A stretch of 64,000 nucleotides of DNA from IMG/VR virus record IMGVR_UViG_3300045988_168552. The stretch is one strand, 5' to 3'. Of the stretch, positions 4,251 through 38,928 are shown piece by piece (the stretch's first letter is position 1; each line of letters begins with the position of its first letter). A program made the translations under genes and the position numbers. This DNA comes from a virus. The notes beneath the pieces were generated by a model that was not told where the DNA came from, did not search any database, and worked only from the letters and a program-made list of their open reading frames with translations.

Positions 4251-4613
4251 ATGATGATACAGATTCAAGATTGGGAATCTTCCCAGAAAATCATTGTCGT
4301 AGATGAAATCAATCACGGCACCGTACAGGTGGAGGTACCGAAGCCTGGACCCTACAAGGACGAGTATTACCAGTATGCCGATTGCGCTATCTATAACCTA
4401 TGGGTAGATGAGAAGTACCGCAAACAGGGAACGGCTCGCCTCCTGATAGAGACCGCAGAGCGGGAAGCTAAGGAACTGGGCTGCAAATCGGTACAGCTGG
4501 AGTGGAACGATAAAGACACCGAGGTTTTCGTTCTCGCATGGTATAAACGTCTTGGCTATCATGTAAAGGGATTGAGTGAAAACGATCTGCTGTTGCTGGT
4601 AAAGAAACTCTAG
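4251..4613 (+). CDS. GNAT-family N-acetyltransferase
   Basis: Acetyl-CoA-binding motif A-like segment 'LWVDEKYRKQGTARLLIETAEREAKELG'. The 120-aa size is typical of a minimal GNAT. Confidence 0.75.
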   Translation: MMIQIQDWESSQKIIVVDEINHGTVQVEVPKPGPYKDEYYQYADCAIYNLWVDEKYRKQGTARLLIETAEREAKELGCKSVQLEWNDKDTEVFVLAWYKRLGYHVKGLSENDLLLLVKKL

Positions 4614-4810
4614 TTGCAATGTTGAATGTTGAACATTGAAAAGCATTCAGCACTACTTTGTCCAACCCATTACAAGGAAAAGTATTACCTTTGTAAATAG
4701 AAATGAATAAAGAAACTATTTCGTTCTAAATATTTAATGAGTTATTAGGTTATATGATTACTTAACTGCAAGGAGTTGCAGCGTTTTAGATTATTCATTA
4801 TGATTATAAG

Positions 4811-4845
4811 GGCTTCTTCGCTGCGAAGCAGGGGAGCCTTTTCCC
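4811..4845 (+). terminator. imperfect hairpin plus T-run; same family as 17681..17716
   Basis: 'GGCTTCTTCGCTGCGAAGCAGGGGAGCCTTTT' resembles 'GGCTGTTTCGCTGTGAAGCGAGGCAGCCTTTTTT' found after the tape measure gene. Confidence 0.4.
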
Positions 4846-4892
4846 ATTTACTTTTTAGATATTTCTTATATATATAGATAATGTATTAATTT

Positions 4893-4943
4893 CCAAAAAC
4901 GCAGAAGGGCGGGTGTCGTGATGACATCCGCCCTTTTATCTTT
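4893..4943. terminator. bidirectional rho-independent terminator between convergent GNAT and terminase genes
   Basis: An 11-bp stem GGGCGGGTGTC / GACATCCGCCC with one mismatch and a 5-nt loop. It is flanked by an A-run (4895-4899) and a T-run (4934-4937). Confidence 0.7.
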
Positions 4944-6942
4944 AAACGTTCCTTCCGTCCGGAAGCACGAACCAGCCGATATTTCCTCGCCAGAATTTGC
5001 ATCCCATATATAGCGAGTCGAAGGCATCGGTGAAGTCAGTACGCTGCTGCAACGGCAGGTTGTCTTCCGTTTCCGGTTTCTTCTCCTGACTCTTATCCTT
5101 TCTGAATCCCTGATAGCCGATGCTTACTTCACAGAGCTGCAAGGCTATAATCAGGTCGGGATTGTTAGGCTGATTGATACGAATAGCAGGATATTCTATG
5201 CCGGCAAGACCATTATTGATGATGCGATGCTTCACCTCATGCTTTTCCGGCACACCCATATCTATCGCCGTCACGTTCCAGCCATTGCGCTCCAACTCTT
5301 TTATGACTGCCTGGTAGAATTTCTCATCGGTCAAAGCATACGATGCACCCTGCTTTGCGGTGGCATCGTAGTAGTAAACCACATCACGGTTCACGGCCCT
5401 CTTCGGAGCATAATAATGTGAGAAATCATCTACCAACTCCCTCAGCTTGCGCTCGTTCTTTACATAGAAGCTCTTGATTACATTCACTGCCTCCACTCCG
5501 TCACGTTGATATACCTGACCTACCACCAACGTATTGATGTTGGCGTTATAGTCAAATGCGAGATAGAGAGGGAGGTCGTTCACGCAGTCGGCATCCATAC
5601 GGCAGTCGTTTCTCTCGGACAGTTCCTTAAAGTCCGGCTGATAGCTTTCTGATGTAATCTTCTTGCCACCGATGATGCCCGTAGTCTTCTGAGTGCTCCA
5701 GTTGGCTTGCGAAAGGGGGTCTATCTCATCGCAGGTGTAACCGTGAACATGATCTATATCCAGGTTAGAATAGAAACCATCATTAGATTTTTTGATTTTC
5801 ACGTTCAGGATGGAAACCATGAAGGTATAGTTAGGCAAATCTCGCTTCATCGTGCGGATATAGTCTTCCGTAAGCAAATCTACATTGTCGAGGGTAGAAG
5901 CACGCCTAACGAGGAATGCAGAACGGCGAAGCTCTCTCAGATAGTCGTCTCGAAACTTATCCGCCTTGTCAAACATCTGCATTTCCCACCATTCTTCTTC
6001 CGTAAACAGATATTCATAATCATAGATGAGTTCTGCATCCGCTGCATCCACCAGCTTATAGTTTACCGCCATATCCACCATGTTCTTGGTGAGCTGGTTG
6101 CCATGGTTAGGCAGAATCTTAAACTGCCCCTCGTGCTTAATCATCTTGAGGGCGATGGCACGTATCATCAATCTTAAATCAGGTGGCACGGCATGAGGGA
6201 TATGCCCGGTCTTTTTGGCATTATAGATAAGGTCGTTGTAACGGATAATCTTGTTTGCATAGTCTTCCAACTGCTCCTGCACCCATCTGTAAGTCTTGCC
6301 TTGAAATTTACCTGATTCTATCGTAAGGTCAAGTTTCTCCTCCTCACGCTCCAGCCAACTGCCCTTGGTAGTAAGCGAAGCATCAGATAGGAATCTTGTC
6401 GATTTATAGAGCGGGTTGTAATCAGTAAAGTTGAGGTTACCCAAAGGGTGAGTCTGGCCTGATAACGCCGGCATCAACTCATCGGTTACTTTCTTATAAG
6501 GGAAGAATCTTGCCTCGTCACCTACCATCGCTGAAAAAGTGTAGCTGTTGGCACTTGCGGTCTGCGAGAGGGAGATGAGCACCCACTGGGCACCATTGGC
6601 AAACCAAATGATATTGTCATAGCTTTTCGGCTTAAAGATAGCCTCACGAGCGTGCTTCGGTGGTCGTCCCCAACCGAAATGAATGCCCTGCGTAAAGCCG
6701 AACATTCGTTCCATGGCAGCCATGGTACCAGGAATAGTTTTGCCGAATCCCTGCTGTCGTGATACGGCTACCCAGGCTCCCAGCATACCGGGCATGGAGT
6801 TAGAAGCCATCCAGACGTAAGGAGCCACAAGACCATCGGTTTTACCCACACGTCTTGCGGCAATCACCCTTTCATCCTTCGCAGCCATATACAGAGATTG
6901 CTGCTGGAATTTGGTTAGGTATATCAAATGTGGTTGTTGCAT
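4942..6942 (-). CDS. terL: terminase large subunit
   Basis: 666 aa. Walker A-like 'RRVGKTDG' and Walker B-like 'MVGDEARF' in the N-terminal half. Acidic nuclease-like segments 'AFDYNANINT' and 'YYDATAKQG' in the C-terminal half. Confidence 0.8.
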   Translation of the reverse strand: MQQPHLIYLTKFQQQSLYMAAKDERVIAARRVGKTDGLVAPYVWMASNSMPGMLGAWVAVSRQQGFGKTIPGTMAAMERMFGFTQGIHFGWGRPPKHAREAIFKPKSYDNIIWFANGAQWVLISLSQTASANSYTFSAMVGDEARFFPYKKVTDELMPALSGQTHPLGNLNFTDYNPLYKSTRFLSDASLTTKGSWLEREEEKLDLTIESGKFQGKTYRWVQEQLEDYANKIIRYNDLIYNAKKTGHIPHAVPPDLRLMIRAIALKMIKHEGQFKILPNHGNQLTKNMVDMAVNYKLVDAADAELIYDYEYLFTEEEWWEMQMFDKADKFRDDYLRELRRSAFLVRRASTLDNVDLLTEDYIRTMKRDLPNYTFMVSILNVKIKKSNDGFYSNLDIDHVHGYTCDEIDPLSQANWSTQKTTGIIGGKKITSESYQPDFKELSERNDCRMDADCVNDLPLYLAFDYNANINTLVVGQVYQRDGVEAVNVIKSFYVKNERKLRELVDDFSHYYAPKRAVNRDVVYYYDATAKQGASYALTDEKFYQAVIKELERNGWNVTAIDMGVPEKHEVKHRIINNGLAGIEYPAIRINQPNNPDLIIALQLCEVSIGYQGFRKDKSQEKKPETEDNLPLQQRTDFTDAFDSLYMGCKFWRGNIGWFVLPDGRNV

Positions 6943-6993
6943 ATTTTAAAATTTTGTTATCCTGAATGTATGTTGATTTAGCCGCGTCCTTGC

Positions 6994-7016
6994 GTCCGTT
7001 AGGCGTTCCTGCGGAT
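6994..7016 (-). repeat. exact 23-mer ATCCGCAGGAACGCCTAACGGAC (read on the minus strand)
   Basis: Identical to 17731-17753 on the plus strand. It lies between the 7025..7363 gene and the terL start. Confidence 0.8.
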
Positions 7017-7024
7017 CATAGCAC

Positions 7025-7363
7025 CTATCCTTTGCAGTACTCCATCCTAAACTGTCTTGCAAGAAACTTATCGTTTTTGATAAGGTTTACGATTTCCTCC
7101 TCCGTATGACAGCCTTCCCAGAAGAGTTCGGTATGGTCTCCGTCCCTGTCTTCATCTACAGAGAAAGGCACACCGTAGTTGGTGTAGGTTTCTCCGTGAT
7201 GTTGAACCAGGTGGCGACCTGGGCTTTTTCGGATGTTTTCTATCCAGACTTTATTATCACACTCGCACCATTTATTGTATTCTTCTCCTGTCAGGGTCAT
7301 GTCAATACCGATAGGGTAGTGACCGGAACATCCATTGGTTCCGAAATAAATAATCTTTGCCAT
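7025..7363 (-). CDS. hypothetical protein
   Basis: ORF track; lies in the leftward operon between the methyltransferase and terL. Confidence 0.55.
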   Translation of the reverse strand: MAKIIYFGTNGCSGHYPIGIDMTLTGEEYNKWCECDNKVWIENIRKSPGRHLVQHHGETYTNYGVPFSVDEDRDGDHTELFWEGCHTEEEIVNLIKNDKFLARQFRMEYCKG

Positions 7364-7375
7364 AATTTCTCAGAT

Positions 7376-8317
7376 TTAAAATAGGCTCGGCTGCGCCAAC
7401 TCTAATTTGATACGCTTGCAAGCCTTGTCGTAATATTCTTTGTTCACCTCAAAGCCGATAAAATTCCTCTTTTCTCTGATGCAGGCGATGGCAGTAGTGC
7501 CGCTGCCCATGCAGTTATCGAGAACCAAATCACCTTCATTAGAATGCTTGGTTATGATTTTCCGAATCAAATCTACTGGCTTTTGGGTAGGGTGAAATCT
7601 ATCCTTTTCATGGCAGATAGGGTAAGAATATACGCCATTATCGTACTCGCTTTTGAATATAGGAGACGAACCTTTTACGGCACAAACGGCAAATTCCTTG
7701 GCGTTCGTGAGATAGTTAATCTTACTATTAATAGGAACGGGGTTTGTCTTCTGCCACTCTATCAATCGTAGCTGATTAAAGCCCGCTTCCTCCATCGCTT
7801 CTTTTACGATATTGATTTTCCACAAATCGTAAAAGCAGACGATATATCCGCCATCCTTTAGACATCGATATGATTCCTTAATCATCTTTTTTATATCAAA
7901 AGCGTCAGGTTGGTCCCATTCCCCAAAATCAATGGATATACGAAATCTGTCGGTGTCTTTTCCTGTTGGCTTAGACTTAGCATAGTTAGAATCCCGAGAA
8001 ATTGCGTATGGCGGGTCGGTTATTATCAGCGAGATTGAATCCTTGCCAATCTTCTTGATCCCCTTCAAGCAATCCTCATTGTATATCCTATTGCATTCCA
8101 GTAGGTCGTCACCATTTCCGTTCCAATAATCGGCATAATCGTTAAACTTATCTTCTTCGGTTGGTTCCAAGCTAGTGAATGTGGTACCGCATCGGTCACA
8201 GCGATATGTATTTTCTACTCGACCATCTGGTACGTCGTTCTCTCCGCACCAAACAATACCCCCACCACAAGTAGGGCATTGAAGTGAAACGATTTCAAGT
8301 ATTTTGTCTTTTGCCAT
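7376..8317 (-). CDS. DNA methyltransferase, beta-class (N6-adenine or N4-cytosine) with N-terminal zinc ribbon
   Basis: 'IITDPPYAI' (motif IV) precedes 'DNCMGSGTTAIAC' (motif I), which is the beta order. N-terminal CPTCGG...CDRCG. Confidence 0.85.
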   Translation of the reverse strand: MAKDKILEIVSLQCPTCGGGIVWCGENDVPDGRVENTYRCDRCGTTFTSLEPTEEDKFNDYADYWNGNGDDLLECNRIYNEDCLKGIKKIGKDSISLIITDPPYAISRDSNYAKSKPTGKDTDRFRISIDFGEWDQPDAFDIKKMIKESYRCLKDGGYIVCFYDLWKINIVKEAMEEAGFNQLRLIEWQKTNPVPINSKINYLTNAKEFAVCAVKGSSPIFKSEYDNGVYSYPICHEKDRFHPTQKPVDLIRKIITKHSNEGDLVLDNCMGSGTTAIACIREKRNFIGFEVNKEYYDKACKRIKLELAQPSLF

Positions 8318-32976: not shown

Positions 32977-34083
32977 ATGCAAGAACAGATAAACCTTACC
33001 ATCCCCCGCGGCTGGAATCAATGCACCCCTTCCCAGCTAGAGCAGATTGCCCTCATCATGCTGGAGCAGATAGAGAAATCCAAGGCAGACCGCTATCACC
33101 CCTTCGATATGCAGAAGGTGAAGGTAGCCGTCTTCTTCCTCTTTGCCGGGATAAGCATCAATGCCTATCCCGACCCTCGTCTGCCTATCAATGAGCAGCA
33201 CTACCTGGTAAGCATAGAGCCGCAGAAGAAGAGCCTCCTGAAGAAGCTCCTCACCATCTGTACCCCCATTCCCAGCGATTCTATCGCTGGTACCCAATCG
33301 GCTATCCACTTCCCCCTCTATCTCTGGCAGCTCAACTATTGGCTCTCTCCGAAAGCCAAGACCGATGATAAGACCTCCCCTGAGTACATCGCTCAGGGCG
33401 CAGGTCTTCTCGATTGGCTGGATGCAGATAGTGGCAATTTCCTCACCCGCTTCCCCTATCCATCAATCCGTCAGAAATCCAAGTGGTATCGTCGTGCAAA
33501 AGCTTTCCGCGGTCCTAACATCGATCTCGATGGTTTCTCCTGGCAGCAGTACCGTTTTGCCAGCGACATGATGCAGACCTACACCAAGTTAAGCAATAAC
33601 CTGGTAAAGATGAAGAAGATGGATAAATTCACCGAGGAACAACTCCAGACGCAAGCCCAGAGTGTAGCCAGCGCCAGAAACATGTTCCTTGCCACCATCT
33701 TCAACACCACCACCCAATATATCGACCCGACAACAGGTATCACAAAATATGATTTTCACTACGAGTCGAAGCAGTTCACCGAGAACGCAGGTTATTTCGT
33801 CAATTATCCGGAAGCCAACTGGCAGGTCATCCTCTTCTGGTGGAGCGGCATCATGCACACCCTAGCCCGTCGCTACCCTCACGTATTCAAGGTGCAGAAG
33901 GTAAACAACAGCAAGCCGCAAACCCCGATGGAAATCTACACCGCCACCACCGCCACGATGCAGAAGTATGCCGGCTTAACGGAAGATCAGGTCAACACCC
34001 AATCCTACTCCCTCGTTCTTGAACATCTCGAAAGGTTGTCGAAAGAGAATGAGGAAGTGGAAAAAATGAGGAGAGGAAAATGA
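32977..34083 (+). CDS. hypothetical protein (368 aa) carrying an in-frame copy of the hairpin element
   Basis: ORF track. The element at 33263-33290 is translated as 'PIPSDSIAG'. Confidence 0.55.
   Translation: MQEQINLTIPRGWNQCTPSQLEQIALIMLEQIEKSKADRYHPFDMQKVKVAVFFLFAGISINAYPDPRLPINEQHYLVSIEPQKKSLLKKLLTICTPIPSDSIAGTQSAIHFPLYLWQLNYWLSPKAKTDDKTSPEYIAQGAGLLDWLDADSGNFLTRFPYPSIRQKSKWYRRAKAFRGPNIDLDGFSWQQYRFASDMMQTYTKLSNNLVKMKKMDKFTEEQLQTQAQSVASARNMFLATIFNTTTQYIDPTTGITKYDFHYESKQFTENAGYFVNYPEANWQVILFWWSGIMHTLARRYPHVFKVQKVNNSKPQTPMEIYTATTATMQKYAGLTEDQVNTQSYSLVLEHLERLSKENEEVEKMRRGK
33263..33290 (+). repeat. CCAGCGA hairpin element, intragenic copy
   Basis: 'CCCCCATTCCCAGCGATTCTATCGCTGG'. Confidence 0.8.
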
Positions 34084-34211
34084 TAGACGTAAAGGTATCT
34101 GTACATCCTTTGAGTCATAAACAGAAATGGAAGAAATGGGCGGGGCTTTCTCCTGCACTCAGAGCCACCGATTACAAATGCCCACACTGCATAAGGATAG
34201 AGTATGAATAA
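34080..34211 (+). CDS. C5-MTase target-recognition-domain (TRD)-like mini-ORF a (43 aa)
   Basis: MIDVKVSVHPLSHKQKWKKWAGLSPALRATDYKCPHCIRIEYE. ATGA overlap with the upstream stop. Ends in TATGAATAA, which contains the next ATG. Confidence 0.5.
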   Translation: MIDVKVSVHPLSHKQKWKKWAGLSPALRATDYKCPHCIRIEYE

Positions 34212-34335
34212 CCATCGTTTTTACCAATATCCACGAGGCGAGAATAAGGGCGGTATTCTAAATACGGATCTCTGCCCTACCATTACCATCAATGCGTGGG
34301 AGCAGAACGTTTTTCTGATAAAGAAATATGAGTAA
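34204..34335 (+). CDS. TRD-like mini-ORF b (43 aa)
   Basis: MNNHRFYQYPRGENKGGILNTDLCPTITINAWEQNVFLIKKYE. 8-nt overlaps on both sides. Confidence 0.5.
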   Translation: MNNHRFYQYPRGENKGGILNTDLCPTITINAWEQNVFLIKKYE

Positions 34336-34654
34336 TAACAACCAACCTCAATACAAGCGAGGAACGATTATCAAGAACGGAAAGAGATATGGCTTTTATC
34401 CCGATGGTTCTCTCTATCGGATATACTCCACCTCTGACCGTCCGTTTCTTGAAATCGTGGATATAGAAGGTAAAACCTTCCTGCGCATCCGTCAGGCGAC
34501 AGAGCAAGGCTATACCGATTGCCCTGCACCCGGTGCAGCCGATTTGAATTACCCTACCTCCGCATTAAGACGTAGCCGCACGGTAGGGGGTGGTAAATTA
34601 GTAAATGCACTCACGGCTGCCAGTAGCAATCCGTTTGTGTTTGTAGAATTATAA
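34328..34654 (+). CDS. TRD-like ORF c (108 aa)
   Basis: 'NYPTSALRRSRTVGGGKLVNALTAASSNPFVFVEL' resembles the segment that precedes motif IX in C5-MTases. Confidence 0.55.
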   Translation: MSNNNQPQYKRGTIIKNGKRYGFYPDGSLYRIYSTSDRPFLEIVDIEGKTFLRIRQATEQGYTDCPAPGAADLNYPTSALRRSRTVGGGKLVNALTAASSNPFVFVEL

Positions 34655-34683
34655 ACAAAAAAAGATTTATAGAGCAAAACAAA

Positions 34684-35985
34684 ATGATAACGAAATTCAA
34701 TTTCAAGGATAAGACCATTAAGTCTTATGCCATCCGAAAGCTGACACCCTTCGAGTGTTTCCGACTCATGGGTGTGCGAGATGATGTGATCCGCACGATG
34801 CAGAGTACCAATGCCGAGGCAGCCGAGCGAGTAGCTGGCTATAAGAGCAAGGGAAAGGCAGAAGATATGGCAGTATCAGCCAGCCAGCAATACAAGCAGG
34901 CAGGCAACTCCATCGTGGTAGATGTACTTGCAGCCATCTATCAGCAACTCTGGTACCCGAAAGAACCGAAGCGTGAGGCACAGACTTCTTTCTTTGCCGA
35001 TTTCTTCCCAGAAGACCAACTTCCACCCTATCCGGTAGATAAGAACCACGGTGAAAAACTTATTCTCACCACCTTCTCCGGTTATGACTCGCAGCTCATG
35101 GCAGCCGATGTCCTCGCCCAGCAGCATCCTGATTTCCGTTGGACATGTGTAGGCTGGAGCGATATAGACAAATACGCCTGTCAGATGCACGACCTTATCT
35201 TTCCGCAGTTTGCTGACAAAGCCTTGGGCGATATAACCAAAATCGACTGGCAGCAAGTAAAGAATAATGTGGGGGGCCAAGAAATCGACCTTTTCACCTA
35301 TTCCTCACCTTGCCAGGATATATCGCAAGCCGGCAAGCAGATGGGTTTGAAGGAAGGCTCCGATACCCGTTCGGCATTATTGTGGCGAGTAGCCGATGCC
35401 GTGGAGGTATTGCGTCCGAAGTATCTGCTTCAGGAGAATGTGGCAGCCCTGGTAAGCGAGAAGTTTATGCCCGATTTTCAGAAGTGGCGTGATAAGCTCT
35501 CGTCTCTCGGCTACGTAAGCCGATGGGCAAGGCTCAATGCCAAAGACTATGGTGTTCCGCAGAACCGTGACCGTGTTTTCTGCCTCTCAATGAGAAAAGA
35601 TGTAGCCTTCGATTACCAGTTTCCCGACCCTATTCCGCTGAAGAGAAAGTTGGAAGATGTGTTGCAGGAGGAAGTAGATACAAGGTTTTTCCTGAAAGAT
35701 GAAGTCGTCAGCAAGTTCCTTCAGGCAAACGATAAAGACACCTGCGTCTTCCATCAGTTCGAGATAGATCCGAGTCATGAGAATGCGATGGCATTAAAAG
35801 CCATCCTCACCCTTTATATAGAAGAGGCGCATCTTTGGTATTACACTCCAAAAGAACTGCAGGAGAAGATTTCTTCCGCTCACGAAGACATCATCATGCC
35901 GCTGTTCAATGACTGGAAAGAGAACGGCAAGTTCGCAAATCCTAAGTTGGAAAATATGTATCATCAGTTTTTGAAGAAGAAATGA
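34684..35985 (+). CDS. DNA (cytosine-5)-methyltransferase core, circularly permuted (motifs IX-X then I-VIII)
   Basis: N-terminal part: 'IRKLTPFECFRLMGV' (IX) and 'KQAGNSIVVDVL' (X). Then 'LTTFSGYDS' (I), 'YSSPCQDIS' (IV, catalytic Cys), 'LLQENV' (VI) and 'VPQNRDRVF' (VIII). Confidence 0.85.
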   Translation: MITKFNFKDKTIKSYAIRKLTPFECFRLMGVRDDVIRTMQSTNAEAAERVAGYKSKGKAEDMAVSASQQYKQAGNSIVVDVLAAIYQQLWYPKEPKREAQTSFFADFFPEDQLPPYPVDKNHGEKLILTTFSGYDSQLMAADVLAQQHPDFRWTCVGWSDIDKYACQMHDLIFPQFADKALGDITKIDWQQVKNNVGGQEIDLFTYSSPCQDISQAGKQMGLKEGSDTRSALLWRVADAVEVLRPKYLLQENVAALVSEKFMPDFQKWRDKLSSLGYVSRWARLNAKDYGVPQNRDRVFCLSMRKDVAFDYQFPDPIPLKRKLEDVLQEEVDTRFFLKDEVVSKFLQANDKDTCVFHQFEIDPSHENAMALKAILTLYIEEAHLWYYTPKELQEKISSAHEDIIMPLFNDWKENGKFANPKLENMYHQFLKKK

Positions 35986-36131
35986 TTTGTAATCGTTCTA
36001 TCATCCTTGGCTTGTATAGCCCTTCCCAAAACGGCATTGTCGTGCATCCGAAAGGCATTGCCATTTGCCTTACTGGTGGTGGCAAAGGGCACGATGTTGA
36101 TAAACCGAAAATATTATTAGAGTATGAATAA
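35982..36131 (+). CDS. TRD-like mini-ORF d (49 aa)
   Basis: MICNRSIILGLYSPSQNGIVVHPKGIAICLTGGGKGHDVDKPKILLEYE. It resembles the M.HhaI TRD segment QGERIYSTRGIAITLSAYGGG (recalled from memory). ATGA overlap with the MTase stop. Confidence 0.55.
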   Translation: MICNRSIILGLYSPSQNGIVVHPKGIAICLTGGGKGHDVDKPKILLEYE

Positions 36132-36276
36132 GGTTATTCCTTTCGTAAAACGATTTAAGGAGTTATGCCCACGATTAGAAGGCTACTCCACCGCTCTATC
36201 ATCGAGATATGATGGATGGGGTGGGCTGTACGACAACCACGGGCAACATACAATGTTATTATTAAGATATGACTGA
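36124..36276 (+). CDS. TRD-like mini-ORF e (50 aa)
   Basis: MNKVIPFVKRFKELCPRLEGYSTALSSRYDGWGGLYDNHGQHTMLLLRYD. 8-nt overlaps. Confidence 0.45.
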   Translation: MNKVIPFVKRFKELCPRLEGYSTALSSRYDGWGGLYDNHGQHTMLLLRYD

Positions 36277-36439
36277 AAAGCATTATATCGGATGGTCCCG
36301 AGACCATAAAGGCAAGGTTCGCAATCGTCCACGCAAGGATATAGCGAATGCAGTAACCCAATTCAATAGCGGCGATAGCTATACCAATCAAGACGTTTTG
36401 GGTGATACGTCGCCTTATGTAATATATGAATATGATTAA
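36269..36439 (+). CDS. TRD-like mini-ORF f (56 aa)
   Basis: MTEKHYIGWSRDHKGKVRNRPRKDIANAVTQFNSGDSYTNQDVLGDTSPYVIYEYD. Confidence 0.45.
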   Translation: MTEKHYIGWSRDHKGKVRNRPRKDIANAVTQFNSGDSYTNQDVLGDTSPYVIYEYD

Positions 36440-36608
36440 GATATTAGCCATTCACGAGGCGAGAACAGAGCACGCCAAGGAAGTACGCAAGCAGACCGGC
36501 ACCAATGATTATCGGGATAAAGCCATCTTCTTCCGCGATAATCATTTGATGCAGTGCATTGGCACCTTCCATACGAAAGATAATCTTCTTGCCTTTAGTT
36601 ATGAATAA
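36426..36608 (+). CDS. TRD-like mini-ORF g (60 aa)
   Basis: 'RTEHAKEVRKQTG...MQCIGTFHTKDNLLAFSYE'. Paralogous to ORF h. Confidence 0.5.
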   Translation: MNMIKILAIHEARTEHAKEVRKQTGTNDYRDKAIFFRDNHLMQCIGTFHTKDNLLAFSYE

Positions 36609-36611
36609 AAT

Positions 36612-36794
36612 ATGATTCAGCAAGCCATCATTACTCACTATCGAACTGAGGAAGCGAAGGCTTATCGCAAGATACACGGCGACAGAGGCGGTTGTCGTTA
36701 TCAGGATAAGTATCATCGCCCAAGCCCTTACCCCTGGAGTAACTGCATTTCCACCGTAACAAAAGATAATCTTTTATGGCAACAATACGAATAA
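36612..36794 (+). CDS. TRD-like mini-ORF h (60 aa)
   Basis: 'RTEEAKAYRKIHG...SNCISTVTKDNLLWQQYE'. Confidence 0.5.
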   Translation: MIQQAIITHYRTEEAKAYRKIHGDRGGCRYQDKYHRPSPYPWSNCISTVTKDNLLWQQYE

Positions 36795-36934
36795 GAACCT
36801 GCGCAAGCAGAGGCAGAGCCGATGGAGATTGGTATTCCAACCCTCACTCTGAAAGGCTCGAAATCGGAGACTGCATCAGTAACGCTATTTCCTCTATCGC
36901 CAAGGATTTTATGATCATTATCAATTATGAATAA
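36776..36934 (+). CDS. TRD-like mini-ORF i (52 aa)
   Basis: MATIRIRTCASRGRADGDWYSNPHSERLEIGDCISNAISSIAKDFMIIINYE. Found by hand; below the track's 60-aa cutoff. Confidence 0.45.
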   Translation: MATIRIRTCASRGRADGDWYSNPHSERLEIGDCISNAISSIAKDFMIIINYE

Positions 36935-36946
36935 GAAGAGGAGCAT

Positions 36947-36971
36947 CTGTTCCCAGCGATTCTATCGCTGG
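36947..36971 (+). repeat. CCAGCGA hairpin element, copy
   Basis: 'CTGTTCCCAGCGATTCTATCGCTGG'; lies between the TRD array and the 37111 gene. Confidence 0.85.
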
Positions 36972-37110
36972 TTCCCTCCCTTCTTTGTCCCCACCAAAGC
37001 CATAAAAATCCCTAACTTTACACTCAGAAACAAGAGAAATAGGCGCGCGTATATCGCCGCCCTTCTCTCTTCCATCACATTCAGGATAACATATAAAAAG
37101 AAACGCAAAA

Positions 37111-38928
37111 ATGGCAAGCAAAAACAAAAACAGAGTAACCAACCTGCAGCAGCTCCAAAATCGTAGTGAGGAACTGAAAGATGCAGGCTATGTAGCCGTT
37201 CGGCCAGATGCTTTTACGTCGCCTAAGAACGGCGGCAATAAGGTCTTTTCCTGGAACGACTACGTTCACGGCATGCTCCTAACCACAGCCGGTATGTCGG
37301 CAAGCGGTGGCGACGCAGGCGGTTCCGCAGCACGTCAGCAAGTCTCCACTATCTTTGCATCAAGCGGCGGCGAGAACCTGGGCAAACCGAAGGACGTAGG
37401 TACCGAAGGCTTAGGCTTTATGGAATGGGGTATGGCCAACCGACTGCCAAACCTTATCTGGATGCTCTCCCGTATGTCGCCTTTCACGGCAGCAGGAGTA
37501 GATTACATCAAGAAGATACTGGTAGGTCGTGGTCCCGCAGCCAAGTATCATTACACTCAGTACGTAGGCGGGAATATCACGGAGAAATATATCCCCTACG
37601 AGAGCGCAGGAGTCCTGCTCCGTGGTCAGATAGCTGACCTGAAAGCCAAGGAAGAGGCAGCCGCCGAAGCCAAGCGTCAGAACGAGCAGCAGAGCCAGAA
37701 CGGGCAGTCTCAGCAGTCAGAGTCTCCGTTCCCTGCGGTTCAATCGCAGGTCTTATCCTCCGATGAAGAGGAAAGCGAGGAGATGAAATCTCTGAAAGAA
37801 GCCCTCCACAAATGGGAAGAAACCAATGCGCAGCTTCGTGATTTCCTGGAAAACAATGACCTGATGCAGACCTTCCTCGATTTGGCAGGCGATATGGCTC
37901 TGATGTCTCAGTGCTTTGTAGAACTCCAGCTCAATCAGCGTTCCCTCGACGAGAACGGCAAAGCTGTTCCTACTGCCCAATGGACCCCGAAGGTAATCGG
38001 TCTGAAGCATCGCAGCATCTTCACCACCCGACTGGAGCGCATGGACGAGAACTACCGCATCAACTATGCCTACGTGAGCAATCAATGGCTCGACCCTACA
38101 CAATACGTCGGCGTGCAGAAAGAGGAAGACCGCAAGATAGCGGCTATCCCCTATCTCCCTACCACATCAGCCGTGAAGGATTTGCAGCGCAATATCCGTG
38201 AGGCACGTCAGAAGCAGGTAAGCCGCAAGAAACGCCCTACCCGCTTCATCATGTCGCCAAGAGATTTCGGTGGTCCGTACTATGCCGATGCCCTTTGGCA
38301 CTCCATCTTTGCCGGCAGCATCTTCGAGTATGCCTTCACCATCGTAGATGACCGCCTCACCCGAAAGCGCAACAGCAATATCATCGGTAGAGTTATCTAT
38401 ATCCATCAGGACTATATCAGCAGGCTCTATCAGCAACAGGGCGAGCAGAAAAAGAAGACCTACGGCGAGATTCAGAATGAAATCTTTACTTCTATCAATA
38501 CATGGCTCGCCAATCCCGATAATGCAGGTCAGGCGCTCATTTCCTCTGCCTTCACGGGCAGCGATGGAAACGAGCACAAGGCTTGGGAAATCGTGGAAAT
38601 CGAAACCAAGGCAAATGATCAGGCAAATGCCGATAAGACCGAGCTGCAGGAAATAAGTAGTATCATCTTCTTTGCCATGGGTCTTGATGCCAAGCTCATC
38701 GGTAATACTCCTGGCGATACGGCATCATCGGGCGGTACCGACCTGAGAGAACGTTTCCTGGTAAAGCAAATCCAGTTTGCCCCATTGCAGCAGTTGATGA
38801 TACGCCCACTGGAAGTTTTGAGCCGCTTCAACGATTGGGATGAGCATCTGGTATGGCAGATAGACAGAGAGGTATTGACTACCCTCGATAACTCGAAGAC
38901 CGGAGTGGCAAAACAAGAGACCTCTTAA
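37111..38928 (+). CDS. candidate portal protein (by size and position only)
   Basis: 605 aa; first gene of the long rightward virion operon. No motif recognised. Confidence 0.4.
   Translation: MASKNKNRVTNLQQLQNRSEELKDAGYVAVRPDAFTSPKNGGNKVFSWNDYVHGMLLTTAGMSASGGDAGGSAARQQVSTIFASSGGENLGKPKDVGTEGLGFMEWGMANRLPNLIWMLSRMSPFTAAGVDYIKKILVGRGPAAKYHYTQYVGGNITEKYIPYESAGVLLRGQIADLKAKEEAAAEAKRQNEQQSQNGQSQQSESPFPAVQSQVLSSDEEESEEMKSLKEALHKWEETNAQLRDFLENNDLMQTFLDLAGDMALMSQCFVELQLNQRSLDENGKAVPTAQWTPKVIGLKHRSIFTTRLERMDENYRINYAYVSNQWLDPTQYVGVQKEEDRKIAAIPYLPTTSAVKDLQRNIREARQKQVSRKKRPTRFIMSPRDFGGPYYADALWHSIFAGSIFEYAFTIVDDRLTRKRNSNIIGRVIYIHQDYISRLYQQQGEQKKKTYGEIQNEIFTSINTWLANPDNAGQALISSAFTGSDGNEHKAWEIVEIETKANDQANADKTELQEISSIIFFAMGLDAKLIGNTPGDTASSGGTDLRERFLVKQIQFAPLQQLMIRPLEVLSRFNDWDEHLVWQIDREVLTTLDNSKTGVAKQETS

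Follow-up and report, generated by a model that had tools for sequence, protein, structure and literature searches.

The methyltransferase locus and its array of short genes

The locus described here lies in IMG/VR virus record IMGVR_UViG_3300045988_168552, which was analysed as one stretch of 64,000 nt (hereafter the window) and belongs to a human-gut phage of roughly 100 kb. Between positions 34080 and 36934, ten open reading frames (ORFs) follow one another on the + strand: three short ones (u1-u3; 43, 43 and 108 amino acids, aa), a 433-aa C5-cytosine methyltransferase (MTase), here called the core, and six further short ones (d1-d6; 49-60 aa). An earlier annotation made from the letters of the window (the sequence-only reading) had placed three mini-ORFs upstream and six downstream of the MTase, and all ten ORFs are found at those places on the same strand. 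The core has no target recognition domain (TRD), and most of the mini-ORFs resemble single TRD modules of other MTases. We consider it rather likely that core and mini-proteins form a multi-subunit, multispecific C5-MTase, in which free-standing TRD subunits would assemble with the TRD-less core in trans. The features of the locus, with the basis of each assignment, are the following.

34080..34211, + strand: u1, 43 aa, family I, TRD mini-ORF ending ..IRIEYE-TAA (ORF and family I profile)
34204..34335, + strand: u2, 43 aa, family F, TRD mini-ORF ending ..LIKKYE-TAA, overlapping u1 by 8 nt (ORF and family F profile)
34328..34654, + strand: u3, 108 aa, family E, ending ..FVFVEL-TAA (ORF, phmmer and family profile)
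34684..35985, + strand: core, 433-aa circularly permuted, TRD-less C5-cytosine MTase (PF00145, phmmer and Foldseek)
34720..34959, + strand: core residues 13-92, motif IX (AIRKLTPFECFRLMG) and motif X (QAGNSIVVDVL) (alignments to M.MpeI 331-391 and M.HhaI 279-314)
35056..35754, + strand: core residues 125-357, motifs I-VIII (FSGYDS, PCQ, ENV, QNRDR), then the conserved start of the variable region, LEDVLQEEVDTRFFLKDE (alignments and invariant columns)
35755..35982, + strand: core residues 358-433, extra helical C-terminal region, a candidate docking platform (AlphaFold2, AF2)
35982..36131, + strand: d1, 49 aa, family C, TRD mini-ORF ending ..KILLEYE-TAA, its ATG overlapping the core stop (ORF and family C profile)
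36124..36276, + strand: d2, 50 aa, family H, TRD-like by motif only (YSTALSSRYDGWGG..), ending ..LLLRYD-TGA (ORF)
36269..36439, + strand: d3, 56 aa, family G, TRD-like by motif only (IANAVTQ..), ending ..VIYEYD-TAA (ORF)
36426..36608, + strand: d4, 60 aa, family B, TRD mini-ORF ending ..LLAFSYE-TAA (ORF and family B profile)
36612..36794, + strand: d5, 60 aa, TRD mini-ORF, a second, divergent family B member ending ..LLWQQYE-TAA (ORF, clustering and family B matches)
36776..36934, + strand: d6, 52 aa, family D, TRD mini-ORF ending ..MIIINYE-TAA (ORF and family D profile)
34203-34211, 34327-34335, 36123-36131, 36268-36276, 36431-36439, 36600-36608 and 36926-36934, + strand: junction motif TATGAnTRA, encoding Tyr-Glu/Asp-stop with the next ATG inside

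The family order in the window is thus I-F-E-[core]-C-H-G-B-B-D. The genes are packed as in an operon, the largest intergenic gap from a 368-aa ORF upstream of u1 through d6 being the 29 nt between u3 and the core. Reading frames alternate across the array, and each mini-ORF has its own ATG and its own stop. Seven of the eight + strand copies of TATGAnTRA in the 64-kb window are ORF ends, and the - strand holds none. The sequence-only reading had recognized this motif, which is real, at five junctions; the count at ORF ends is seven. It had also given all mini-ORFs a C-terminal Tyr-Glu/Asp (Y-E/D), which holds for eight of the nine, the exception being u3 with its terminal VEL. The arrangement that it gave for those five, with the next ATG embedded in the Y-E/D-stop codons and the next ORF in the +1 frame, fits most junctions, and the remainder are heterogeneous: besides the u3/core gap there are a 3-nt gap between d4 and d5, a 19-nt overlap between d5 and d6, and ATGA overlaps between the stop of the 368-aa ORF and the start of u1 and between the core stop and the start of d1. 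If d4 began instead at the ATG at 36432, its overlap would have the usual 8 nt.

The core is a circularly permuted enzyme that lacks a TRD

Pfam family PF00145 matches the core at 6e-50 in two separate stretches, and phmmer against the PDB finds M.MpeI (6e-27) and M.HhaI (7e-22). In the alignments to these two enzymes, core residues 13-92 correspond to motifs IX-X and residues 155-357 to motifs I-VIII, and the PF00145 hallmarks FSGYDS, SSPCQ, QENV, QNRDR, RKLTPFECFRLMG and QAGNSIVV are aligned. All ten catalytic motifs are therefore present on a single 433-aa ORF and are not divided over two chains. A Foldseek search with the AF2 model of a close core homologue returned M.MpeI (3.9e-12), then M.HhaI and M.HaeIII, at E-values of about 1e-11. 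These data support the assignment of the core as a circularly permuted, TRD-less C5-MTase and bear out the motif order IX-X before I-VIII that had been proposed from the sequence.

The position of the missing part is defined by the same alignments. The alignment to M.MpeI stops at residue 285 and restarts at residue 331, and thus about 45 residues (286-330), the central part of the TRD, are missing from the core. M.HhaI residues ~206-269 likewise find none. The two core termini are the two edges of this gap, in agreement with the earlier suggestion that both ends of the ORF sit at the TRD insertion point. The missing stretch spans ~45-64 residues, and the sizes of the mini-ORFs match this length. 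None of the mini-ORF family profiles matches the core itself. A MAFFT alignment that placed d1 on core motifs IV-VI (IILGSYSPSQ.. on IDLFTYSSPCQ.., and KPKILLEYE on RPKYLLQENV) was discarded as chance, as no family profile beats shuffled sequences there.

Two parts of the core lie outside the catalytic motifs. AF2 places strands at residues 2-6 and 11-15, a predicted N-terminal β-hairpin (2-15) ahead of motif IX, and helices at residues 365-381 and 389-414 with a predicted local distance difference test score (pLDDT) of 86-89. The PDB alignments end at residue 357, and residues 358-433 have no sequence match in the PDB. The start of this C-terminal extension is conserved (PxHExAMxLK), and the remainder is variable between clades.

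Most mini-ORFs match single TRD modules of other enzymes

The clearest evidence on the nature of the mini-ORFs comes from gut-phage proteins in which similar modules are fused. Dulem virus 40 (PP511379.1; L082:3019-4959) encodes a split MTase of normal motif order, with an alpha subunit of 258 aa and a beta subunit of 373 aa, and in the latter six or seven TRD modules stand in tandem ahead of motifs IX-X. Successive, non-overlapping modules of this beta subunit are matched by the mini-ORF family profiles D (37.5 bits), F (29.4), J (22.6), B (16.5), K (15.7), E (14.7) and L (13.1), each of which outscores all of 2000 shuffled decoys. The order E-F-J is common to Dulem beta and many arrays. P0226, P0270, P0202, P0273 and further multi-TRD proteins are matched by families E (40-49 bits), D (36-48), T (35), F (27), B (24-28), J (21-24), I (14) and C (12), and the families in this fused-protein comparison, S and O included, score above all or nearly all decoys.

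For the window, these comparisons tie u1, u2, u3, d1, d4, d5 and d6 to TRD modules of ordinary or fused MTases. The family I profile of u1 scores 14.4 bits on GICPALRATDYKDP of P0273 (decoy maximum 5.7), that of u2 (family F) 27-29 bits on Dulem virus 40 beta residues 163-196 (0 of 2000 decoys reaching the score), and that of d1 (family C) 11.7 bits on QRGRVYHPDGISPCLNGLDSGNNMPKIKV of P0226 (decoy maximum 5.0). Family B, to which d4 belongs, scores 24-28 bits on P0226 residues 109-182, on P0202 and on P0273, and family D (d6) 36-48 bits on Dulem beta 93-136, P0270 191-237 and P0273 128-177. All 32 database homologues of d1 (48-80 aa) are stand-alone proteins.

The C-terminal half of u3 (residues ~45-105) is a common TRD type, IRQATxxGY...P(T/S)SxxRR(G/S)R..TLT, and its N-terminal half is an additional β-rich extension. 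phmmer against 1.84e9 proteins gave 180 matches. In the longer of these proteins, which include PF00145 MTases, complete or partial, the match falls where the TRD is expected, for example at residues 210-269 of P0236, a complete 333-aa PF00145 enzyme, and further matches lie in multi-TRD beta-like proteins. The family E profile reaches 40-49 bits. Furthermore, a chimera of u3 and the N-terminal part of the core gains 9-13 bits in PHROG over the N-terminal part by itself; the corresponding chimeras of the short mini-ORFs gain 2-4 bits, and the test is informative for u3 alone. Outside the TRD match, u3 residues 1-50 (34328-34480, KRGTIIKNGKRYGFYPDGSLYRIYS..) match repeated segments of β-propeller/WD40-like proteins, e.g., six stretches in P0186.

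Taken together, the profile matches support the homology of seven of the nine mini-ORFs to single TRD modules. The sequence-only reading, which had taken all nine as TRDs, holds to this extent, and for d2 and d3 the resemblance is at the level of motifs. The Pfam check that it had proposed for each mini-ORF gave no match at E<=10, and the TRD homology came from family profiles instead. Searches of INPHARED phages at the DNA and protein level found no match, whether the query was the region or the nine mini-ORFs joined end to end, and searches of the PDB with the mini-ORFs (chimera phmmer; family C profile) did not reach TRDs. A likeness of d1 to the TRD of M.HhaI is unsupported, as neither phmmer with the d1 chimera nor the family C profile against the PDB extends into that TRD.

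The boundaries agree as well. Modules of the fused proteins end in a hydrophobic strand and a Glu, followed by Pro or Lys. The mini-ORF stops fall on this module boundary, plus two residues (Tyr-Glu/Asp) that also make the overlapping ATG.

Gut-phage MTases with 4-7 fused tandem TRDs include those of Dulem virus 40, P0226, P0270, P0273 and L090:3980-5617. Such fused TRDs occur in beta subunits of split enzymes or in a 545-aa enzyme of ordinary order that adjoins the terminase; the classical SPR/phi3T enzymes have fewer. P0291 resembles a permuted enzyme with fused TRDs. A match in Bacillus phage Deep Blue, considered as a single-piece permuted enzyme, was rejected, since it consists of three ordinary MTase genes in tandem.

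The array is conserved and under selection in related phages

A scan of viral contigs with the core yielded 80 related loci (core identity 66-99%) on contigs of up to about 110 kb, many of them 90-110 kb long. All 80 have a core without a TRD (432-442 aa in most) and, around it, arrays of 30-110-aa ORFs that end in the same way. The mini-ORFs form ~20 families, with 5-16 members per phage. Their order is partly conserved, and the comparison with related phages that the sequence-only reading had called for reveals gain and loss of cassettes across the 80 loci.

Nei-Gojobori ratios of nonsynonymous to synonymous substitution (dN/dS) for 15 families lie at 0.07-0.26, indicating purifying selection; the values for the window families are 0.12 (I), 0.20 (F), 0.11 (E), 0.13 (C), 0.18 (H), 0.19 (G), 0.19 (B) and 0.26 (D). 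In the window and the 80 loci, [YF][ED] ends occur in 518 of 2901 short ORFs on the + strand vs 6 of 2875 on the - strand, an asymmetry far outside chance, and the ORFs with such ends cluster within ~2 kb upstream and ~1-3 kb downstream of the core start. The same stops and starts recur in more than 80 independent assemblies from different samples. These observations support the mini-ORFs as real, conserved and selected genes.

Families C, H and E-like comprise hundreds of stand-alone 47-130-aa database proteins annotated as 'hypothetical'; in public annotation generally, the core appears as 'cytosine specific methyltransferase' and the mini-proteins as 'hypothetical protein'. For family H (d2), the 120 best of 149 profile matches (E<=10) are all stand-alone proteins of 47-78 aa. 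Family M, found in downstream arrays (e.g., L003-L011), has a 33-aa member, MNKVIIDKGSIPPSEEKEDDPNDMPPFVLIEYD, with the common C-terminal strand and tail and without a TRD-like recognition segment; its role may be that of an 'empty plug' or a regulatory one. The host is probably Prevotella, a tentative assignment based on two Prevotella bins of metagenome-assembled genomes (MAGs) and NCBI 'Prevotella sp.' names, other MAG-bin assignments being inconsistent.

Poly-G tracts switch TRD genes in relatives of the window

In the related phages, coding-strand runs of at least 7 G are enriched about 70-fold in the array (171 runs within the 5 kb surrounding the core vs 6 in the flanks). These tracts, 7-12 G long, occupy homologous sites within TRD genes, and an ORF is intact or broken depending on the tract length. 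In family E, G8 gives proteins of 105-108 aa ending ..FVEL, and G6, G7 or G9 gives truncated ones. Examples of tracts are found at L098:2807, L098:3300 and L098:5338 and in the arrays of L003-L016 (locus coordinates about 4400-7700).

Hypermutability was assessed with contigs that share an identical core, pairs among the 25 closest loci being too divergent for this purpose (98.8% identity at most). Between such contigs from different samples, with 0-1 substitutions over 2.5-5 kb, the sole differences are at poly-G tracts: one site has 12, 8 or 7 G and a second one 8 or 9 G, every indel falling in a G tract. In one identical-core example, the length of the family E ORF is 108 aa for G8 but 89 aa for G9. 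Metagenome assemblies are somewhat prone to error in homopolymer length, which explains neither 5-nt differences nor the enrichment. As judged from the assembled genomes, the pattern is the signature of slipped-strand phase variation.

This feature is absent from the window itself, whose array has no run of at least 7 G. The sites homologous to the tracts are interrupted (GGGCGGGG at 34142-34149, GGGGGTGGT at 34586-34594 and GGGGTGGG at 36218-36226; also TGGGGTGGG), and in the core a G6 at 35271-35276 is followed by C. Thus, all nine TRD genes and the core would be 'locked ON' in this phage, and the nine TRD ORFs are all intact. The core gene of relatives likewise contains a G7 tract (at locus coordinate ~5588, in the site ATAATGT-G7-CAAGA). 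Truncated cores of 172-220 aa (P0306, P0307, P0314) occur on contigs of about 100 kb, one of them starting MWGGQEIDL at the tract. In some genomes, therefore, switching may turn off the core as well.

Phase variation would provide a rationale for separate TRD genes, because each specificity could be switched without destroying the rest. Conversely, ON/OFF tracts in single TRD genes are sensible only if the TRDs are separate genes.

A proposed core with exchangeable TRD subunits

In the arrangement that we favour, one chain would supply all ten catalytic motifs in the permuted order IX-X-I-VIII, and nine small genes would supply one TRD module each (43-108 aa). Core and modules would be expressed from a single packed operon, translated mostly by termination-reinitiation at the TATGAnTRA overlaps. 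A free TRD could plug into the gap between the core C-terminus, after motif VIII, and the core N-terminus, before motif IX. The conserved C-terminal hydrophobic strand and acidic tail of the TRDs (phi-phi-phi-E-Y-E/D) might serve as the docking element, and the N-terminal hairpin (2-15) and the helical C-terminal region (358-433) of the core are further candidates. Each TRD would confer a different sequence specificity on the shared core, and the several 5-methylcytosine (5mC) patterns on the phage DNA would allow escape from several host restriction systems. In multispecific enzymes, several tethered TRDs have to share one scaffold by turns, and such enzymes may thereby be prepared for plug-in use of TRDs.

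Several points weigh against this arrangement. In two AF2 runs on P0096, a database protein in which a core is fused to a TRD, the core reached a mean pLDDT of 63-66 and the TRD part ~28-30, too low for a confident prediction on docking; the alignments were shallow. Engineered pairs of a IX-X-I-VIII core and a free TRD, made from M.MpeI and M.SssI, were inactive in vivo while other splits were active (PMC5944983), so that trans assembly would need evolved docking features. The overlapping ATG (xAT Gxx) accounts in part for the Y-E/D tail, which is thus perhaps no docking signal. The extra 76-aa C-terminal region of the core might itself contact DNA. Two mini-ORFs gave nothing significant in profile searches: d2 (family H) against the fused TRDs, where hhalign found the tail alone in common, and d3 (family G) against TRDs. 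Finally, translation, binding and methylation of the system are deduced from sequence comparison.

Some of these points would equally fit mini-proteins that act alone. They could mask restriction sites as small DNA binders or decoys with sequence specificity, or they could regulate or inhibit the core. The latter would then work unaided, with relaxed specificity or by means of its extra C-terminal region, and the failure of engineered free TRDs to complement a permuted core (PMC5944983), the AF2 models without confident TRD docking and the unexplained 76-aa helical region of the core are all compatible with this. However, in all 80 loci the arrays are linked to and co-oriented with a TRD-less core, the breakpoints of the mini-ORFs are module boundaries of fused enzymes, and the gap in the core has the size of one module. 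In addition, we know of no C5-MTase TRD that folds or binds DNA without the rest of the small domain. We regard independent action as unlikely, if the most serious of the alternatives.

Separate products or a recoded polyprotein

The sequence-only reading had offered fusion of the TRDs to the core by recoding as a second possibility. A +1 shift or hop at the Y-E/D-stop junctions would yield one multi-TRD polypeptide, possibly joined to the core, and would recreate the fused architecture of the Dulem virus 40 or SPR type, for which proteins with the same modules exist; at most junctions the next ORF is in the +1 frame at the stop codon. A fusion of core and TRD is known in P0096 (482 aa, on 4 contigs), although it is derived from an indel: a frameshift, natural or erroneous, near the core C-terminus joins the core in frame to a d1-like TRD, in relatives of the window region 35900-36131. 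It is the only protein longer than ~445 aa among the 120 best core homologues.

The junctions themselves argue against recoding. Across 81 arrays, the 8-nt overlap is the commonest junction (330 cases), followed by overlaps of 19, 4 and 14 nt, and gaps range from 1 to 74 nt. All three stop codons are in use (542 TAA, 223 TGA, 132 TAG). Tyr at position -2 is encoded by TAT 473 times in 542 (87%) vs 54-65% elsewhere, and this bias indicates selection for the sequence that contains the ATG of the next ORF. A frameshift site would need neither this bias nor the ATG that is kept in every ORF. By codon-anticodon rules, the P-site codons GAA, GAU and GAC would be unable to re-pair in the +1 frame, and the 29-nt gap between u3 and the core holds in-frame stops that a single shift cannot bridge. 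The pattern points to termination-reinitiation of separate products rather than frameshifting, as far as nucleotide sequence can tell, and leaves recoding a very small probability.

Still less probable is that the array is a degenerating multi-TRD gene, or that faulty assembly or sequencing has put stops into one ordinary multispecific gene. Homologous TRD modules are fused elsewhere and many TRD ORFs in relatives are truncated, as such a history would have it. Yet the truncations map to poly-G tracts, the sole length difference between otherwise identical genomes, as expected of switching. The recurrence in more than 80 assemblies, the 518 vs 6 strand asymmetry and the TAT bias contradict decay or artefact, and the dN/dS of 0.07-0.26 excludes assembly error and pseudogene decay. 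The sequence-only reading had named missing TRD homology, stops due to misassembly and drifting stops as signs against its own proposal; TRD homology is present, the stops are the same in the independent assemblies, and pseudogene-like drift is absent.

Joining of one TRD at a time to the core by recombination at junction or inverted repeats, in the manner of a shufflon or hsdS, is equally improbable, for although the junction motif is repeated (e.g., TAGAGTATGAATAA at 34198 and 36118) and cassette content differs between phages, every cassette lies on one strand, a repeat search found short chance-level repeats and the junction motif and no significant inverted repeats, cores with a fused TRD are essentially absent among homologues, and direct-repeat recombination would delete cassettes irreversibly.

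Relation to known methyltransferases

Multispecific Bacillus-phage C5-MTases (M.SPRI, M.phi3TI, M.rho11sI, M.H2I) have TRDs of ~40-60 aa that are independent modules, each with its own target. The system in the window shares with this SPR/phi3T type a single catalytic framework with several TRD modules, carriage by a phage and a presumed anti-restriction role. It differs in that each TRD is a separate gene, the core is permuted and the modules are more numerous (nine, and up to about 16 in relatives), whereas SPR-type TRDs are contiguous in one chain between motifs VIII and IX of an enzyme with normal motif order. The fused beta subunits of Dulem virus 40, P0226, P0270, P0202 and P0273 are closer in sequence: they contain modules B, C, D, E, F, I, J, K, L and T, partly in the same order, and their motif IX-X sequence is very similar (..RIRKLTPxECFRLMG, AGNSIVVDVL). 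In these proteins, one chain comprises 3-7 TRDs and then motifs IX-X, and a second protein provides motifs I-VIII, whereas the TRDs of the window are all free-standing.

Division of a C5-MTase and permutation of its motifs each have natural precedents. M.AquI is an active enzyme of two polypeptides, split in the variable region (Karreman and de Waard, 1990, cited in PMC5944983). There the catalytic motifs are divided into I-VIII and IX-X and the subunits are unique, while here the motifs are on one chain and the detached part is the recognition module, present in many alternative copies. Natural permuted C5-MTases comprise M.BssHII, M.Alw26I, M2.Eco31I, M.Esp3I, M2.BsaI and 22 others, with the permutation point always in the variable region (PMC5944983). 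The window core agrees with the M.BssHII type in having motifs IX-X N-terminal of I-VIII and the permutation in the variable region, but lacks the TRD that those enzymes keep in the same polypeptide (mostly type H, TRD-IX-X-I-VIII). The inactive engineered cpM.MpeI and cpM.SssI pairs, [IX-X-I-VIII] plus free TRD, have the same topology as the one proposed here (PMC5944983). Type I HsdS and phase-variable Type I or Type III systems share the logic of a common MTase with an exchangeable specificity part and homopolymer switching (here in relatives). They are N6-adenine MTases of the unrelated gamma and beta classes without homology to the core, and the analogy is functional only.

A full-text literature search found no description of free-standing C5 TRD genes. 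We give roughly even chances to the wider proposition that this is the first natural C5-MTase with exchangeable free-standing specificity subunits, in which a permuted core would be served by 5-16 plug-in TRDs, with poly-G ON/OFF switching in many relatives, producing combinatorial, bet-hedging 5mC methylomes against restriction and methyl-dependent restriction.

Should the TRD mini-proteins indeed complete the core, the system would be a natural solution to the detachable-TRD C5-MTase that engineers failed to build, and its ~20 families a toolkit of small, swappable DNA-recognition modules for programmable 5mC writing. It would also offer insight into how multispecific MTases serve many TRDs with one active site, a question that to our knowledge has been open since the work on SPR and phi3T and for which we know of no structure. 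Moreover, it would add a layer to the phage-host arms race in the human gut, with probable Prevotella hosts, in the form of a combinatorial epigenetic camouflage that in relatives is also phase-variable. Annotation as TRD subunits could then be extended to hundreds of 'hypothetical' phage proteins of 45-60 aa.

Neighbouring genes

The 368-aa ORF (32977-34083) that adjoins u1 upstream has no match in Pfam or PHROG, and its presence upstream of the array is limited to the closest clade. At the downstream end, a 79-aa, very basic ORF of uncertain coding status (36927-37166) starts inside the last TATGAATAA junction. It is not TRD-like, overlaps the start of a 605-aa portal-like gene (37111-38928) and has similar ORFs in 19 related loci.

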